Source: Candidatus Hydrogenedentota bacterium (GTDB lineage: Bacteria; Hydrogenedentota; Hydrogenedentia; Hydrogenedentales; SLHB01). Taken from it: a stretch of 64,000 nt of DNA. The notes below the pieces were generated by a model. It was not told the DNA's origin. It did no database searches and was given only the letters and a program-made list of their open reading frames with translations. Below, piece after piece: positions 30,633 to 36,822 of this stretch (positions are counted from its first letter, which is position 1; every line of letters begins with the position of its first letter). A program made the position numbers and the translations under genes. The stretch is from assembly GCA_045863335.1 (NCBI GenBank), contig BTVY01000023.1, positions 1-64,000 on the forward strand. Direction: 5' to 3'.

Positions 30633-30799
30633 AGAGACCCTCCCGTTTGGAGCCTGATGCCAAAAGAATATCGGCGCAAGGAAGAGCGCACAAGCATTCG
30701 CCGAAACAGCTGGTGCCGAGCGTTTGCCAGGATGACCCGAATTCCAGTATCGTTCTCCGAACTTTCCCGGCAGAAGTGCCATCCCAAGGGGTGCTGTTC

Positions 30800-32680
30800 G
30801 TGCGAATCTCCATTCGTCATACCTTGCGTATCGCATTACTCCTGGCAGTCGTGCTCGGCACGGGCTGCTTTGCCGGCGTGTCTCTCAAGCCCGTGCCGAC
30901 AGCGGTTTCGTTTCGTGAGTTGCAGGGAAATGCGCTCAGCACCAACGGGCTGAGCATTCACACGAAACAGTTGCTGCGCACCTACAATCTCCAGGAATCC
31001 TACCTTGAAGATGTGCGTGGCGCATTGAAGGTCCTTCATGAGGAAGCCTGCAAGACCGGCGAACGGCCGATCCTGTTCGGCCTGTCGGAGCTGGCCTGTT
31101 TTGCGGGGATGCGCAGCGAAAAGTCTCAGCCGGAAGCAGCGCTCGCCGAGTACAACAGCGCCGCCCGGTATGCCTACTTCTACCTTTTCGACGAAGGATT
31201 CGGAGCGCCTCCAGACCCCTTCGACCCGCGCTTCCGGCTGGCCTGCAACCTGTACAATTTCTCCCTCGCACGGGTGATCGATCTCGTGCAGCGTTCCGGG
31301 CATCCGATGGCGGAAGACGCGTACGAGATCCCCCTTTGGAACGGATCCGTGCACGTGGACATCGAACGCACGGGCTTCCTGCCGGAGGAGGACATCGACC
31401 GGGTCATGCTGGCCACGGAATACGACGTGGTGGGCATTCGGAATCAGTATCGGACCTTCGGCCTTGGCGTTCCACTAATCGCGGTGGGAGCGAAACCGCC
31501 CAAAGAAAGCTACCTCCCCAAGACCCCAAGTTTTGCGGCCACGGCCTTCCTCCAACTGGACGGCACAATATGCGATCCGGCCGGCGCAAGCGGGACTTTG
31601 GAACTGTTCGATACCATGCAGATTCACTCGGTATACGTTGCGGAGGCGAAGATCCCCCTGGAAACGGACATCACGACGCCGCTGGGGTTTCTGTTGTCGA
31701 ATCCCGAACTGGAGCGCACCGCGTACATCGGGTTGCTGCGCGCCGACCGCGTTGCCGAAGACGGCGGCCTGTATATGCTCGAACCCTATCAGCCCGGCAA
31801 AATTCCCGTCGTGATGATTCACGGGTTGGTGTCCAGCCCGCTCACGTGGGCGGAGATGTTGAACGACCTGCGCGGCCAACCCGAGCTTCGCGAACGGTAC
31901 CAGTTCTGGTTCTACCAATACCCGACTGCATATCCATTTGCTTATCCCGCGAGCCAGTTGCGGAACGCGTTGCGCGAAGTGCGGGAGAATTTTGACCCTG
32001 AGCACAACGATGCCGCCTTCGACGACATGGTCCTGATAGGACATAGCATGGGCGGCCTGATCGCGAAAATGCTGGTCCAGGACAGCGGCGACGCGGTGTG
32101 GGGCGCGATTGCCCGCAAACCCTTGGATGAACTGCATGCGTCGCCCGAGGTTCAAGCGGCCATTCGCGATGTCTTCTATTTCGAACCGCAACCCTTTGTG
32201 AAGCGGGTGATCTTCATTTCCACGCCCCACCGAGGAAGCTCGCTGAGTAAGAGCATCCTGGGGACCGCAGTGTCACTTTTGATTGCAGTGCCGAAAACGT
32301 TACTCGAAGAAGTGTGGTCTTTTATCGACACCAATCCCGGTGCATTGCGCGAGGACGTGAAAAAGCGGCGGCTGACGAGCATCGCCAACCTTTCCCCGGA
32401 CAATCCGGTCATCGAGGTCCTGCAGGAGATCCCCATCGCGCCGGAAGTAACGTACCACACCATTGTCGGCAACGTGGCGGAGAAACCGGACGAGGAAATG
32501 ACGGACGGCGTCGTTCCTTACACCAGTTCCCATCTCGAAGGCGCGGCTTCCGAGAAGATCGTGGAGGCGGGCCATTCCGCGCACTACCATCCGCTGGCGA
32601 TTCTCGAGGTCCGGCGCATTTTGCAGGAACATCTTCAAACCCTTCCCGCGGCGGCCATGGCGGAAGTGCCGGGTCACTGA
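30800..32680 (+). CDS. Alpha/beta-hydrolase (esterase/lipase) lipoprotein
   Basis: Lipobox LGTGC; IHGL, GHSMGG nucleophile elbow, STPHRGS, DGVVPY.S, GHS. Confidence 0.88.
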   Translation: MRISIRHTLRIALLLAVVLGTGCFAGVSLKPVPTAVSFRELQGNALSTNGLSIHTKQLLRTYNLQESYLEDVRGALKVLHEEACKTGERPILFGLSELACFAGMRSEKSQPEAALAEYNSAARYAYFYLFDEGFGAPPDPFDPRFRLACNLYNFSLARVIDLVQRSGHPMAEDAYEIPLWNGSVHVDIERTGFLPEEDIDRVMLATEYDVVGIRNQYRTFGLGVPLIAVGAKPPKESYLPKTPSFAATAFLQLDGTICDPAGASGTLELFDTMQIHSVYVAEAKIPLETDITTPLGFLLSNPELERTAYIGLLRADRVAEDGGLYMLEPYQPGKIPVVMIHGLVSSPLTWAEMLNDLRGQPELRERYQFWFYQYPTAYPFAYPASQLRNALREVRENFDPEHNDAAFDDMVLIGHSMGGLIAKMLVQDSGDAVWGAIARKPLDELHASPEVQAAIRDVFYFEPQPFVKRVIFISTPHRGSSLSKSILGTAVSLLIAVPKTLLEEVWSFIDTNPGALREDVKKRRLTSIANLSPDNPVIEVLQEIPIAPEVTYHTIVGNVAEKPDEEMTDGVVPYTSSHLEGAASEKIVEAGHSAHYHPLAILEVRRILQEHLQTLPAAAMAEVPGH

Positions 32681-32734
32681 TTCGGGAGAGGCCGGCTGCA
32701 ACGAAGCGGCTCCAAGAGACAGAGGAGACCGCTG

Positions 32735-33256
32735 ATGCCGTCCGCACCCCGTAGCCATCCCAACACTTTCCGAGCCTTGTCCTCGTACTGGGCCGATTCG
32801 AATCGCATCGACGACCTTTTAACACGCGAAGAGCACGACTTTGTAGCCGTCGCGGTGCGGGAGTTCCGGCGCCGGTTCGGAGACGTAAAACCGACCGTGG
32901 TGATGCGGATCGAGGGGGTGATCATGCTCTACGTGCTCGCGCGCCGGGCCGGACTTGCGGCACTTCGTGCGGGCCTCGCGCCAACGGATCTAAACCGGCC
33001 GCAGAAAGATGGTAAGACGCCCGCGGCTGATGATGTTTGCAGGGCGCACGATCATCTTCGCAAAGCGGTAAAGGACCTCGAGGACGCAACAGGAGACGGC
33101 GAGACGGCAGTGGCGCAAGGGGTCGCGGACCTTCTCCGGCCGCTGCTCAAGGATACGGAAGGGTTGGCGGAGTCCCTGGCGAATGAGGATCGCGAAGCGG
33201 GGTCGAATAACGGCCTGCCGTCCCGGCGTCGCGACTCCGTTGCGGCGGGGCCGTGA
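32735..33256 (+). CDS. Hypothetical helical protein, putative terminase small subunit
   Basis: RBS GAGGAG; 173 aa, predicted helical; stop overlaps the TerL start (GTGA). The TerS call rests on position and size only. Confidence 0.5.
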   Translation: MPSAPRSHPNTFRALSSYWADSNRIDDLLTREEHDFVAVAVREFRRRFGDVKPTVVMRIEGVIMLYVLARRAGLAALRAGLAPTDLNRPQKDGKTPAADDVCRAHDHLRKAVKDLEDATGDGETAVAQGVADLLRPLLKDTEGLAESLANEDREAGSNNGLPSRRRDSVAAGP

Positions 33257-34731
33257 ACCGGATGCGATCGCCACACTACGAACGCGCCCGGCGAGAGTTG
33301 AAAACCCGCGGTTTCAGCGACGATGCGGTCCGACAGTGGTTGAATCTGCACGAGCGCGCGCGATTCGCCCATGCATACCTCCCCGGCGCGAAGGGCCGGC
33401 CCTGGATGGTGCGGGACTACCAGCGAAAATCCCTCGAATCCTTCGCGCTGCGCAAGGTGCATTGCGATGGTCGTGACGTGGGCAAGACGGCGGAGATCGA
33501 AATCATCGCGGCGTGGGCCATGGTCGCATGCCCCGACACGGAGATGCTCATCGCCACGCAGTGTGAGAATCATCTGTTCCCGTTGATGCACCGGCTCGTG
33601 CGCCGGTTCCAGACAACACCGGCTTTCGCGCCAAGCCTCGTTGAGTTGCGCCGGTCGCCGTCCTGGTTCCTTCGATTCTCTAACGGGTTCGTCCTTTGGG
33701 GGCGCATTGCGGGTCCGCGGGGAATGAATTTCCAAGGGCTTCACGTGGACTGGCAAATCGTGGACGAAGCCCAAGAGATGACCGAGAATTCCTGGGGAGA
33801 GTTGTATCAGGCGTTGAACGGGTGCGGCCGCCGCTGGGTGTATGGCGTGCCAAATGGCTTGCGCAATACCTTCTACCGCATGACGCGCATGCCGGACGCG
33901 GAACAGTACAACTGGCCGTCCACGCTGAACCCGGATTACACGGCCGAGAAAGACGCCGAGTTAACCCTGCTCTACGGCGGCAAGGATTCGCCCGGCTATC
34001 TTCATCGCGTACTCGGACTCCACGGATCACCGGCCCATGCCGTCTTTAATCTCGACCACTATCAGGAATGCGTAGACGACGGTATTGACTTCCTGGCGCT
34101 GACTGTGGACGAGCAAGACCCGCTTGATCTGCCGGGCGCCACCGAACCGGGGGAATACTACCTCGGCTGTGATCTGGGCTACGCGCGCGACCCGTCGGAA
34201 TTCGTCGTGTTCCGAGCCGAGCCGCCGCACTTGACCAACGTGATACGGGTGCATCTTCGGGGCGTAAACTATGCGCGGCAACAGGAGATCATTGTCGAAC
34301 TGGACGCGGCGTTTGACTTCCGCTCCATCGGGATTGACTGCGGAAACAATGGCCGTGCTGTCGCCCACAATCTCATGGCGCAGGGGCCGTTGTGGTGCGA
34401 GAAGGTTCGCGCCTTCGAGTTCGGTTCGGTTTTGGAACTGGAACCGTTGCCGGACGGCCGTCCCGACCGACGCCCCATGAAGACGTTCATGACCGAATTG
34501 CTCCAGCGACACTTGGCAGACCGGTCGGTCGTGTTTCCGCGCTTGCCGGACCGCGAAACGCAGTATGCCTCGCACACGTACTCAATCGGCATCAGCGGTC
34601 AAGTGCTGTTTGAGAAGGGCAACGATCACATCATCGACGCCGACCGATGCGCCGTGCTCGCCCATTATCTCGACACCCAGCGCGGGACCGCGGCGCCGTC
34701 AATTGGCCGTATGCGGCTGGAAGGATTCTGA
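33253..34731 (+). CDS. Phage-type terminase large subunit (ATPase + RNase H-like nuclease), orphan
   Basis: Adenine-binding RDYQ, Walker A GRDVGKT, Walker B QIVDEAQ, coupling-motif region GVPNG..NTFY, nuclease acidic motifs YLGCDLG..RD, IGIDCGNNG, NDHIIDA. Confidence 0.88.
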   Translation: MNRMRSPHYERARRELKTRGFSDDAVRQWLNLHERARFAHAYLPGAKGRPWMVRDYQRKSLESFALRKVHCDGRDVGKTAEIEIIAAWAMVACPDTEMLIATQCENHLFPLMHRLVRRFQTTPAFAPSLVELRRSPSWFLRFSNGFVLWGRIAGPRGMNFQGLHVDWQIVDEAQEMTENSWGELYQALNGCGRRWVYGVPNGLRNTFYRMTRMPDAEQYNWPSTLNPDYTAEKDAELTLLYGGKDSPGYLHRVLGLHGSPAHAVFNLDHYQECVDDGIDFLALTVDEQDPLDLPGATEPGEYYLGCDLGYARDPSEFVVFRAEPPHLTNVIRVHLRGVNYARQQEIIVELDAAFDFRSIGIDCGNNGRAVAHNLMAQGPLWCEKVRAFEFGSVLELEPLPDGRPDRRPMKTFMTELLQRHLADRSVVFPRLPDRETQYASHTYSIGISGQVLFEKGNDHIIDADRCAVLAHYLDTQRGTAAPSIGRMRLEGF

Positions 34732-34743
34732 TCTTGCGGTCTC

Positions 34744-36822
34744 TCACAGACCGTTCAGCACGTTGCTTACCCGCTCGGTGAGCACGTCCGCCGTAAAGGG
34801 TTTCTGAATGAAGCGGTCTCCCAGTTGCTCCGCGATAAACCGGGAATCGCGGTTTTCGATATGGCCGGACATGAACAAAATCCGCATGTTCGGCCAAGTC
34901 TCAAGGATGCTCTCCGCCAGATCGCGGCCCGAAGGTCCAGGCATGACCATATCCGTCAACACCAGATCAATGGCCGTCCCCTGCCTCTGGAGAATTCGCA
35001 ACGCTTCACGAGCATTCGGGGCGGCGAGAACCGTGTACCCCTCCTTCTGAAGGATCCGTTCCACGACCTTACGGACCGACTCTTCATCCTCCACAACAAG
35101 AACCGTGCCTTCCGCATCGGTTCTCCGATCGCGCGGCGCTGGGGAATCAGCGTCTTCCTCGGTGTGCTCCGCCACCGGCATCGCGATCGTAAAGACCGAT
35201 CCCTGGCCGGGCGTACTCTCGGCCACGATCTTGCCGTCACAACTTCGGACAATGGCGTACACGGTGGAAAGCCCCAAACCGGTTCCTTGACCCTCCTCCT
35301 TTGTCGTAAAGAACGGTTCAAAGATACGGGCGAGGACTTCCGGATCCATTCCCATGCCCGTATCGGAAACGCTGAGGTGTACGAAACTGCCGTCCGGCGC
35401 TTCCTGAAGCGCTTTGCGCAACCTGGGCCGGTCCACACGGGTACGCACGGTGATCGCGCCGCCTCGCGGCATGGCGTCGCGCGCATTCACCACCAGATTC
35501 AGTAACACCTGTTCGATCTGACTGATGTCCGCATAGATGTCTGGCAACGACGAGGCCAACTGCACGTCGAGCCTGATGTTCTCGCCGATGAGACGGCGCA
35601 GCAATTCGTGCATATTCTTGATGATCTGATTGAGATTCACCACGCGACGGCTCGCGACCTGACGCCGGCTGAAGGTTAGTAGCTGCCGGGTCAGGGCAGC
35701 GCCGCGCTCGGCGATGCCAAGAATCTCCTCGGCTCCAGACTGCACGGCTTGTGTATCCCCGGGCTGGCCTGCCATCAAGTCGGCGGTGCCCATGATGGCA
35801 GTGAGCAGATTGTTGAAATCATGAGCGACGCCGCCGGCCAGCCGGCCAACCGCTTCCATCTTTTGGGCCTGCCGAAATTGATCTTCGAGCTTCCGAAGAT
35901 CAGTCACGTCGAGCCCGTAAATAAGCACATGCGTCACATTGCCGTTTTCGTCAAGAATGGGTTTGTGCGTGCGAATCCAGTGTTCGACGTCTCCCGATTC
36001 AAGCGGGAATCGTTCGTCGAACTGCATCACCTCCTTGCGCGCCACCACAAGATTGACCCACTCGGTGCGTTGTTTGCCGATCTCGGGATTGATCCCGCGG
36101 TATTCGCAGTACTCCTCCATCGTCTGCCCGATAATCCAGGATCGTGTTTCCGGGTCTGGAACCGCGCTGGGAGAAGCGTACTCGTACCGGCACGAACTGT
36201 CGACCATGGCAATGTGCGCGGGCAGCAAGGCCAGCAGCTCCTCATAGAATTCACGCAGTCGTATCGCTTCCAGTTCGGCCCGGCGCCGCTCCTCGATATT
36301 CTGCGTGATGGACAGGATGCAACGTTCGCCATTCAATGTAATGAGCCGCGCATAGAATAGACCGTGAATGACCTCGCCACCCTTCTTGCGGACGCGAATC
36401 TCCAACCCATTAATCTCGCCGTCTTGACGTAGCGCATCCACAATGCGCTGCCGGTTCTCGCCATCCGCCCAGAGGCCGATCTCGGCGGAAGTGTGTCCGA
36501 TGATCTCCTCCCGAGCGTAACCGGTCCGCATAATGAACGCTTCGTTTACATCGAAGAATCGTCCATCGGCGAGCGTAGCAATCGACATGGAGAAGGGGCT
36601 GTCTTCGTAGATAAACTGGCGGAAATCCTGCGCATGGGCGCGGCGGGCCATTTCCTCGTCGAGCGCCTTGTACAGCCGTTCATTCTCCGCGAGGAGACTC
36701 CCCAGCGATTCCTGAATGGCGTCACATGCCTCTGTGCCGCCGGGCAGATCCTTAACCAGTCTGCTCAGTCCGGACAATTCGGCTCGGACCTTCGCCTCTA
36801 TATTGTTCTTCTGATTTGTCAC
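34744..36822 (-). CDS. Cytoplasmic PAS-PAS hybrid histidine kinase/response regulator
   Basis: Two PAS domains, AGGVAHDFNNLL, NLVVNARDA, DTGMGM, FEPFFTTK, GTGLGL, receiver (VVEDE, TDMVMP, KPF). Confidence 0.94.
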   Translation of the reverse strand: MTNQKNNIEAKVRAELSGLSRLVKDLPGGTEACDAIQESLGSLLAENERLYKALDEEMARRAHAQDFRQFIYEDSPFSMSIATLADGRFFDVNEAFIMRTGYAREEIIGHTSAEIGLWADGENRQRIVDALRQDGEINGLEIRVRKKGGEVIHGLFYARLITLNGERCILSITQNIEERRRAELEAIRLREFYEELLALLPAHIAMVDSSCRYEYASPSAVPDPETRSWIIGQTMEEYCEYRGINPEIGKQRTEWVNLVVARKEVMQFDERFPLESGDVEHWIRTHKPILDENGNVTHVLIYGLDVTDLRKLEDQFRQAQKMEAVGRLAGGVAHDFNNLLTAIMGTADLMAGQPGDTQAVQSGAEEILGIAERGAALTRQLLTFSRRQVASRRVVNLNQIIKNMHELLRRLIGENIRLDVQLASSLPDIYADISQIEQVLLNLVVNARDAMPRGGAITVRTRVDRPRLRKALQEAPDGSFVHLSVSDTGMGMDPEVLARIFEPFFTTKEEGQGTGLGLSTVYAIVRSCDGKIVAESTPGQGSVFTIAMPVAEHTEEDADSPAPRDRRTDAEGTVLVVEDEESVRKVVERILQKEGYTVLAAPNAREALRILQRQGTAIDLVLTDMVMPGPSGRDLAESILETWPNMRILFMSGHIENRDSRFIAEQLGDRFIQKPFTADVLTERVSNVLNGL

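Follow-up and report, generated by a model that had tools for sequence, protein, structure and literature searches.

Gene transfer agents (GTAs) are known from only a handful of lineages, and each of them has changed our understanding of gene flow in its host group. In RcGTA-type agents of Alphaproteobacteria, such as the GTA of Rhodobacter capsulatus (RcGTA), the host chromosome stably carries head genes of phage origin together with a terminase. Purifying selection has maintained these genes during vertical descent through a large clade; they come without replication and lysogeny genes and lie at more than one locus, and the large terminase (TerL) is among the best conserved of them. The same features are found in Candidatus Hydrogenedentota, a phylum known from metagenome-assembled genomes (MAGs) only. 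The subject here is a pair of genes, c3 and TerL, on positions 1-64,000 of contig BTVY01000023.1 (this whole stretch is called the window, and the contig is labelled C23 of genome G000, which is 99% complete). I argue that c3-TerL is probably the detached packaging module of a phage-particle gene set, similar to a GTA or to the Bacillus particle PBSX, which the phylum domesticated and has inherited vertically.

The Hydrogenedentota set differs from RcGTA in its parts. It has a Mu-type portal (PF06074, phrog_3753) and a Phage_capsid_4 head protein, not the PF04860 portal and PF05065 capsid of RcGTA; PF04860 is absent from G000, and the sole PF05065 capsid in that genome belongs to an integrase-bearing island on contig C2. 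With portal and capsid families of its own, the set would be an independent domestication. In addition, the terminase module itself is detached from the portal here, no tail genes were recognised, and the host is an uncultured phylum whose system is known from genes alone. PBSX is likewise a chromosomal, non-propagating phage-derived particle that depends on a terminase and packages host DNA, but it occupies one contiguous region with a full tail in close relatives only, whereas the Hydrogenedentota set extends over the phylum, is divided between loci and has no recognisable tail. The TerLs of tailed phages (T4 gp17, D6E, HK97, Sf6, P74-26/G20c) share the two-domain fold and catalytic motifs of the window TerL, which differs from them in being host-fixed, slow-evolving and not beside a portal, and is 13-16% identical to the full-length structures and up to 20% to the single-domain ones. 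Small terminases (P27 family, Terminase_4) resemble c3 in being small, helical and encoded upstream of terL, and in binding the N-terminal domain of TerL through their C-terminal part (predicted for c3), but no similarity of c3 to them was found in sequence, profile or fold.

The pair and its ribosome-binding site are laid out as follows:

32735..33256, + strand: c3, an open reading frame (ORF) of 173 aa with an ATG start and no internal stop
33253..34731, + strand: TerL-like large terminase, an ORF of 492 aa with a GTG start and no internal stop
32721..32728, + strand: Shine-Dalgarno-like AGAGGAGA, 7 nt before the c3 ATG, read directly from the sequence

The GTG start of TerL and the TGA stop of c3 share the GTGA at 33253-33256. 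Public gene calls begin TerL 9 nt later, at the in-frame ATG at 33262 (489 aa, P0151), a start with which the overlap between the two genes would be gone.

Profile and fold comparisons agree on the identity of the larger ORF. It is matched by phrog_2 (PHROG, terminase large subunit; E 4.6e-17), and a Foldseek search with its AlphaFold model (predicted local distance difference test, pLDDT, 76) retrieved full-length T4 gp17 at E 1.4e-18, followed by the large terminases of D6E, HK97 and Sf6. The fold of the ATPase domain matches T4 gp17 and P74-26, and that of the nuclease domain matches G20c (template-modelling score, target, 0.75), P74-26, RB49 and SPP1; a profile search of PDB sequences reached the P74-26 TerL ATPase at E 0.003. 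Pfam and NCBIfam scans of TerL and c3 gave no family at E <= 0.1, PADLOC defence models gave nothing against either ORF at the same threshold, and the public names for the large ORF are 'hypothetical protein' in every case. A VRDYQ motif lies at residues 53-57, and the remaining motifs, with conservation counted over 27 aligned TerL orthologues, are these:

33469..33489, + strand: Walker A GRDVGKT (RKVHCDGRDVGKT), residues 73-79, invariant in 27/27
33757..33774, + strand: Walker B IVDEAQ, residues 169-174, with D171, E172, A173 and Q174 invariant
33844..33858, + strand: GVPNG (within YGVPNGLRN), residues 198-202, with VPNG invariant in 27/27
34165..34179, + strand: nuclease motif GCDLG, residues 305-309, with D307 invariant
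34330..34344, + strand: nuclease motif GIDCG, residues 360-364, with D362 invariant
34621..34644, + strand: nuclease motif NDHIIDAD, residues 457-464, with D458, D462 and D464 invariant
34651..34728, + strand: C-terminal tail of TerL, a variable linker and a conserved terminal h-R-h-x-x-F, a candidate docking peptide

GVPNG corresponds in position to the TTPNG coupling motif of T4. Judged by its sequence, the 492-aa protein is a divergent yet full-length TerL with its catalytic residues intact. Its tail is of fixed length and ends in F in 101/119 orthologues, with F or W within the last 6 residues in 118/119, and portal-linked phage relatives also have an aromatic-ended tail. The TerL C-terminus docks on the portal in several phages, so the retention of the aromatic tail fits a continuing capsid-linked role.

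The smaller gene, c3, encodes a member of a family whose proteins are entirely helical and measure about 130-175 aa. Conserved at their C-terminal end is the motif GK.RERLRKA.KELED, followed by G.P.D.GLAD..KP. Its profile matches in 103/135 genomes of the phylum. The positions of both genes were compared in 84 genomes, and in all of the 76 cases where they share a contig c3 is upstream of TerL on the same strand. The gap between them ranges from -44 to 3398 bp (36 cases at or below 150 bp, 21 at 150-1000 bp and 19 at 1-3.4 kb), and in the large-gap families host genes are inserted between the two, such as the 3D-domain lipoprotein and opposite-strand esterase of locus L030. Within the genus c3 is 44% identical versus 81% for TerL, and this faster evolution is accompanied by a ratio of nonsynonymous to synonymous substitution rates (dN/dS) of 0.21-0.40. 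Comparison of c3 with PHROGs and a PDB profile search gave nothing significant, and the best Foldseek matches were at E 1.1 in the PDB and E 0.36 in BFVD, where a 'terminase small subunit' ranked fifth (E 0.62). With hhalign, c3 aligned to the P27-type small terminase of its own genome with a probability of 0.3%, and to the ORF upstream of phage-class TerL (described below) with nothing significant. A Pfam search over all 19 c3 members was also without significant result, the best hint of a helix-turn-helix being E 0.0022 in 1/19, and neither a beta-barrel nor a helix-turn-helix was confidently detected in c3. A protein atlas built on a language model gave a weak lead from c3 to Terminase_4 clusters (0.90, 161 shared features). 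On the evidence of its sequences c3 is a new helical family, and it may be called a small terminase only by analogy of position, linkage and predicted binding.

Much of this had been anticipated by a sequence-only reading of the window, which listed the TerL motifs in order without a frameshift, the GTGA overlap and a strong ribosome-binding site on a helical 173-aa ORF. All of the listed motifs are present with zero internal stops, the overlap and AGAGGAGA are there to be read, and the c3 family is helical throughout. That reading also expected a gp17-like fold for the large ORF, which was found, and a TerS-like oligomer for the small one, for which no small-terminase similarity was detected.

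A separate observation concerns genomes G049-G052 (family f11, genus g48), each of which has 1-5 matches to the c3 N-terminal domain at other loci. These cover profile positions 1-115 and lie inside larger open frames, and the domain may have an independent life.

TerL was found in 37/41 relatives examined and, across the phylum, in 123/135 genomes, including 83/86 of high quality and 60/66 genera, with zero internal stops among the conserved-class copies. Identity to the window copy is 78-97% within the genus, 65-75% within the family and 52-72% within the order, and the TerL of the single genome from another order is 59% identical. Against four relatives its dN/dS is 0.07-0.13, where the flanking host genes have 0.06-0.23. 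A FastTree phylogeny of 133 TerL family members unites the 27 sequences of the conserved class in a single clade with local support 100, and their tip branches measure 0.01-0.4 against a whole-tree median of 0.66. The two most conserved TerL peptides had no relative among 2.9 million viral contigs, and a cluster look-up of the nearest non-orthologous TerL relatives returned no names and no taxa. A control is provided by the sporadic TerL paralogs of some Hydrogenedentota, which are 33-37% identical to the window copy and sit in an ordinary phage context: these phage-class TerLs are followed by a portal (phrog_2739, E 5e-64) and then a MuF-like head-morphogenesis protein. Their portal type occurs in only 8/135 genomes, and the conserved clade is far from these true prophage TerLs of the same phylum. 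TerL is a host-fixed gene, vertically inherited and under purifying selection. The suggestion, made from the window alone, that the host has retained the pair agrees with this distribution: the pair keeps the same flanks within the genus, and its TerL falls in a clade of its own at low dN/dS rather than among prophage homologues under relaxed selection.

Further copies of TerL were seen besides the conserved one. On contig C42 of G000 (locus L004 9169-10779) there is a second TerL copy, 66% identical, whose class (B) groups in the tree as sister to that of the window copy; this second copy adjoins an IS200-like Y1 transposase (L004 8278-8730) and a DUF4838 lipoprotein. Downstream of it, L004 13925-17986 encodes a Schlafen/AlbA_2-HATPase_c_4-Fic-C protein (489 aa) and an 828-aa ORF, which may be a small defence islet. 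A third class of TerL, 41-45% identical (G106:C22:50923-52843, G109:C343:2774-4643, loci L050-L052), is without conserved neighbours, but in G106 and G109 at least a c3-like ORF immediately precedes the gene; these loci may be further detached terminase pairs. Genome G004, of the window's genus, has extra TerL copies at C1:371969-373487 and C24:454643-456018, each present as two fragments (query residues 31-121 or 65-121, then 126-492), and these are likely decaying duplicates. Finally, Hydrogenedentota-type TerL at 69-95% identity occurs in MAGs labelled Nitrospiraceae, Nitrospirales, Latescibacterota and FCB group (loci L017, L021, L023, L029, L031 and L036), whose submitter labels are probably wrong.

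Portal and capsid genes were sought in the rest of the genome. Searches of G000 with PF04860, PF05133, PF05136 and phrog_2739 portals gave no match, tblastn with the neighbours of phage-class TerL gave no portal and no MuF, and searches with PF06381 and PF13264 were uninformative, having no match in G000 and none in their controls. The Portal_Mu model (PF06074), on the other hand, matched contig C14, and this overturned a leaning towards a repurposed enzyme in a genome without a portal. Over the whole genome, searches with six portal and two capsid families or proteins matched on C2 and C14 only and not on C23, the negative for the window thus referring to family searches rather than to a scan of each ORF in its 64 kb. 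The C14 locus begins abruptly beside an opposite-strand host TPR/DUF5107 gene, with no terminase upstream, and contains the following genes:

C14 gene 1: portal, 419 aa (phrog_3753, E 2.6e-49; Portal_Mu)
C14 h4, after the portal: phrog_16951, a function-unknown family
C14 h5: between h4 and h6
C14 h6 (L059 12159-12854): LigD-type 3'-phosphoesterase-like N-domain (PDB 3p43, E 7.6e-7)
C14 h8: virion structural protein, phrog_4588
C14 major head protein, 349 aa (phrog_3922, E 1.1e-52; Phage_capsid_4)
C14 h11: after the capsid
C14 h12: Dit C-domain-like region
C14 h13, 584 aa (L059 16032-17783): SNase-like domain
C14 h20: weak baseplate and virion matches
h23 and h21: additional block genes in other genomes

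The DNA-end and nuclease domains of h6 and h13 are unusual for a head module. The order of the block is the same in 6 genomes of different families. The portal is present in 121/135 genomes (81/86 high-quality) at 45-97% identity and the capsid in 115/135 (78/86 high-quality) at 57-99%, both mostly single-copy and almost all stop-free, the exception being a fragment with one TGA in G109. TerL, portal and capsid occur together in 103/135 genomes (a tally from the no-match lists), and comparisons inside the genus give the head genes a dN/dS of 0.06-0.16. By comparison, PF04860 (15/135) and PF05065 (20/135) are sporadic. A search for unlinked portal and capsid genes in the rest of the genome, as the sequence-only reading proposed, is thus positive, and the head locus is as universal in the phylum as TerL. 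Of the roles offered for the pair, this terminase-less portal-capsid locus favours the one at the head of the list, a packaging motor for a GTA-like particle with dispersed genes.

Three further observations were made on head genes. For the same genome pair, G000 and G004 (L059 against L075, window against L018), the synonymous divergence dS is 0.44-0.51 for portal, h8 and capsid and 1.2-2.0 for h6, h12, h13, TerL and the lipase; the difference may stem from high expression that constrains codon use, or from a recent recombination event over portal and capsid. Locus L077, a 7.9-kb IMG/VR contig, has the genes portal-h4-h6-h8-capsid arranged in the conserved order, with identities of 39-64% and no TerL, and is probably a Hydrogenedentota host head locus filed as viral. 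The C2 island (L049 8776-18643) encodes an integrase, an AAA_25 replication-type ATPase, a P27-family small terminase (Terminase_4), the HK97-type capsid PF05065, an ERCC4 nuclease and a SocA/Panacea antitoxin, with no TerL or portal, and looks like a phage satellite (similar to a capsid-forming phage-inducible chromosomal island).

How the terminase pair and the head locus relate can be read in the genomes in which they share a contig, 12 of the 93 for which the positions of TerL and portal were compared. TerL precedes the portal on the same strand, in the canonical order, at 1.4 kb in G022, 2.1 kb in G035 and 8.4 kb in G112, and it also precedes the portal in G080, at 19.6 kb. On the closed chromosome of G035, c3, TerL, portal, capsid and h21 follow each other within about 16 kb. 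Elsewhere the distance is large: 138 kb in G004, of the window's genus, 0.98 Mb (977 kb) in G014 and 1.5 Mb on the closed chromosome of G039. In the window, TerL is not followed by a portal, and a convergent histidine kinase stands in that place instead. The canonical phage order in different families is an argument for an ancestor with contiguous genes, from which the 'orphan' state arose later. The identities of TerL and portal to the window's copies are also correlated (Spearman 0.66, n=92); kinship makes the data points interdependent, so the correlation points to co-inheritance only roughly.

A structural model joins the two proteins of the pair. The complex of c3 and TerL scored 0.71, and the best control scored 0.00; this mark was reached by 58/80 solved complexes and 2/110 mismatched pairs, counts that apply only roughly here, since the model was built on alignments made in this analysis. 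Contact agreement between runs was at least 48% and partner pLDDT at least 61. The elements involved are these:

33110..33190, + strand: c3 C-terminal helix, residues 126-152, the TerL-binding element predicted by the complex model
33274..33351, + strand: TerL N-terminal helices, residues 8-33, a predicted c3 contact, missing from the C42 paralog
33514..33537, + strand: WAMVACPD, residues 88-95, a predicted c3-binding surface of the ATPase domain, identical in 25/27

The c3 helix includes the invariant residues A131, D132 (at least 90%) and P136 (alignment A2), and WAMVACPD is altered only in two class-B paralogs. In class A orthologues the interface residues are 87.5% identical to the window's, versus 75.5% elsewhere in the protein. 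In class-B paralogs, which have no c3 upstream and are without the N-terminal helices, interface residues are 40% identical versus 70.6% elsewhere, a comparison of two sequences from one lineage. This conservation pattern gives independent support to the modelled binding of c3 to the ATPase domain at the N-terminus of TerL.

The following history and mechanism would account for these data. An ancestor of the Hydrogenedentota would have domesticated a phage head-and-packaging set, which became fixed before the radiation of the phylum and has since passed by vertical descent. Its ancestral layout may have been c3, TerL, a Mu-type portal, about 4 small genes, the major capsid protein and about 5 more genes, with replication, integration and lysogeny genes stripped away. 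A rearrangement in the window's genus would then have separated c3-TerL from the portal-capsid block, and the pair would look like an orphan because such rearrangements moved it away from that block (on C14 here, at 138 kb in G004). The c3 C-terminal helix would bind the TerL ATPase domain, c3 acting as a regulator resembling a small terminase and as the DNA-recognition subunit. TerL would dock on the portal of procapsids encoded on C14, possibly via its C-terminal aromatic tail, pump in DNA by its Walker A/B ATPase and cut it with its RNase H-like nuclease. Because its genes are dispersed and include none for replication, integration or lysogeny, the particle would probably be unable to carry its own genome or propagate itself, which is the defining trait of GTAs and PBSX-like defective particles, and like them it would carry host DNA.

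Several observations weigh against this reconstruction. The particle is known here from genes alone, and c3 has no detectable similarity to any small terminase. A tail tube, tape measure, connector and clear lysis gene were not recognised in the conserved block. TerL and portal are on different contigs in 81/93 genomes, where their distance is unreadable. The two loci also do not always occur together: TerL is found without a portal or capsid match in 11 genomes, one of which, G028, is 97% complete in 40 contigs, and 5 of these 11 gave no match when searched again with portal and capsid queries of the same family, while another 11 have the portal but no TerL. Family f4 has its head locus next to a sulfatase, with four block genes absent and no match to TerL or c3. 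The sole trace in an RNA library is a 3.9-kb contig of run X2 over lipase-c3-TerL, in which the neighbours are covered too; all matches in public runs are assembled contigs, and DNA carry-over is possible in X2. Absences of about 10% are at the level that MAG incompleteness alone would give. In G028 and f4 the two loci may nevertheless have become truly uncoupled, and a TerL that acts independently of the capsid, or a capsid that works without DNA, would then gain in likelihood. An f4 ORF upstream of the portal was considered as a divergent terminase and rejected, as it is the sulfatase.

A narrower form of the favoured reading is that the whole phylum carries an independently evolved GTA, with an uncoupled terminase that has a partner of new fold and a head block that includes DNA-end-processing enzymes. 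I regard this as a tentative proposal, somewhat short of an even chance; LigD-type phosphoesterase-like and SNase-like domains are not known from other GTAs. Next to it stands a particle that is real but is no GTA, with c3-TerL as the motor of a PBSX-like killer, a DNA-release or secretion vehicle or another particle serving the host. The same genomic evidence speaks for such a particle, as do the unusual head-block enzymes (the LigD-type 3'-phosphoesterase-like domain at E 7.6e-7 and the SNase-like one) and the unrecognised tail tube and tape measure, and at the sequence level it is indistinguishable from a GTA. The intact nuclease and ATPase of TerL under strong selection, however, imply that DNA is still packaged, and I consider a non-GTA particle unlikely.

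It is quite improbable, in my estimate, that c3-TerL is instead a capsid-independent translocase or nuclease, serving repair, recombination, segregation or anti-phage defence, whose co-occurrence with the head locus reflects shared ancestry. The loci are indeed unlinked in most genomes, by up to 1.5 Mb, each is found without the other in the 11 and 11 genomes given above, and G000 has a second TerL copy that is c3-less. Yet these absences are no more than incompleteness predicts, the aromatic tail of portal-linked TerLs is retained in all but one of 119 orthologues, and purifying selection on the head genes is hard to explain without a packaging enzyme. A defence role in particular finds no PADLOC match, and a near-universal, slow-evolving, vertically inherited gene is unlike defence systems. 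The anti-phage factor and the repurposed nuclease, both offered by the sequence-only reading, are thus disfavoured.

That the pair simply belongs to a prophage, whether a decaying remnant or one that is active or can be induced, is scarcely credible: TerL is of phage origin and G000 does hold an integrase island with a capsid and a P27-type small terminase (C2), but TerL is intact in 123/135 genomes at a dN/dS of 0.07-0.13, host genes flank the pair and even interrupt it in other families, no integrase, tRNA or attachment site is nearby, in closed chromosomes the genes lie far apart at separate loci, and the C2-type capsid family is sporadic (20/135 genomes).

If a domesticated particle set is indeed what the Hydrogenedentota carry, it would be an independent domestication of a virus across an uncultured, environmentally widespread phylum, and it would give a testable explanation for 'hypothetical' genes in nearly every Hydrogenedentota genome. 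An abstract-level literature search for Hydrogenedentota terminase, capsid or GTA turned up no description of the gene set, though supplements of MAG papers may list the genes. The family of c3, resembling a small terminase by analogy, is new, and this lineage of TerL is invisible to Pfam and NCBIfam. Annotation and virus-detection pipelines either overlook such genes or take the head locus for a virus (one apparent case in IMG/VR). The separated loci would also be a natural experiment in terminase function with the portal encoded far away.

The immediate surroundings of the pair in the window are host genes outside the system:

30647..32680, + strand: alpha/beta hydrolase, lipase-like (Abhydrolase_6, E 2.1e-9)
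34744..36822, - strand: PAS-HisKA-HATPase-receiver hybrid histidine kinase (family scan)

The hydrolase gene ends 54 bp before c3 and is retained as a neighbour within the genus only; the histidine kinase is convergent with TerL, 12 bp apart, and is retained in the two closest genomes only. These family scans agree with the flanks as named in the sequence-only reading, a lipase-like gene upstream and a convergent histidine kinase downstream, and the host-like GC content that it noted is also correct (0.61 at the locus, 0.57-0.64 in the remaining window). A tRNA scan of the 64 kb found none, and no integrase, tRNA or attachment site was seen near the pair. A misassembly at 32700 or 34740, which had been raised as a concern, is excluded by contigs from other public runs that span both junctions: X2 record 8 covers 31034-34933, X4 record 23 covers 32416-33067 and X3 record 17 covers 34191-35369. 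The stretch itself is present in public runs from sludge, bioreactor and wastewater samples.

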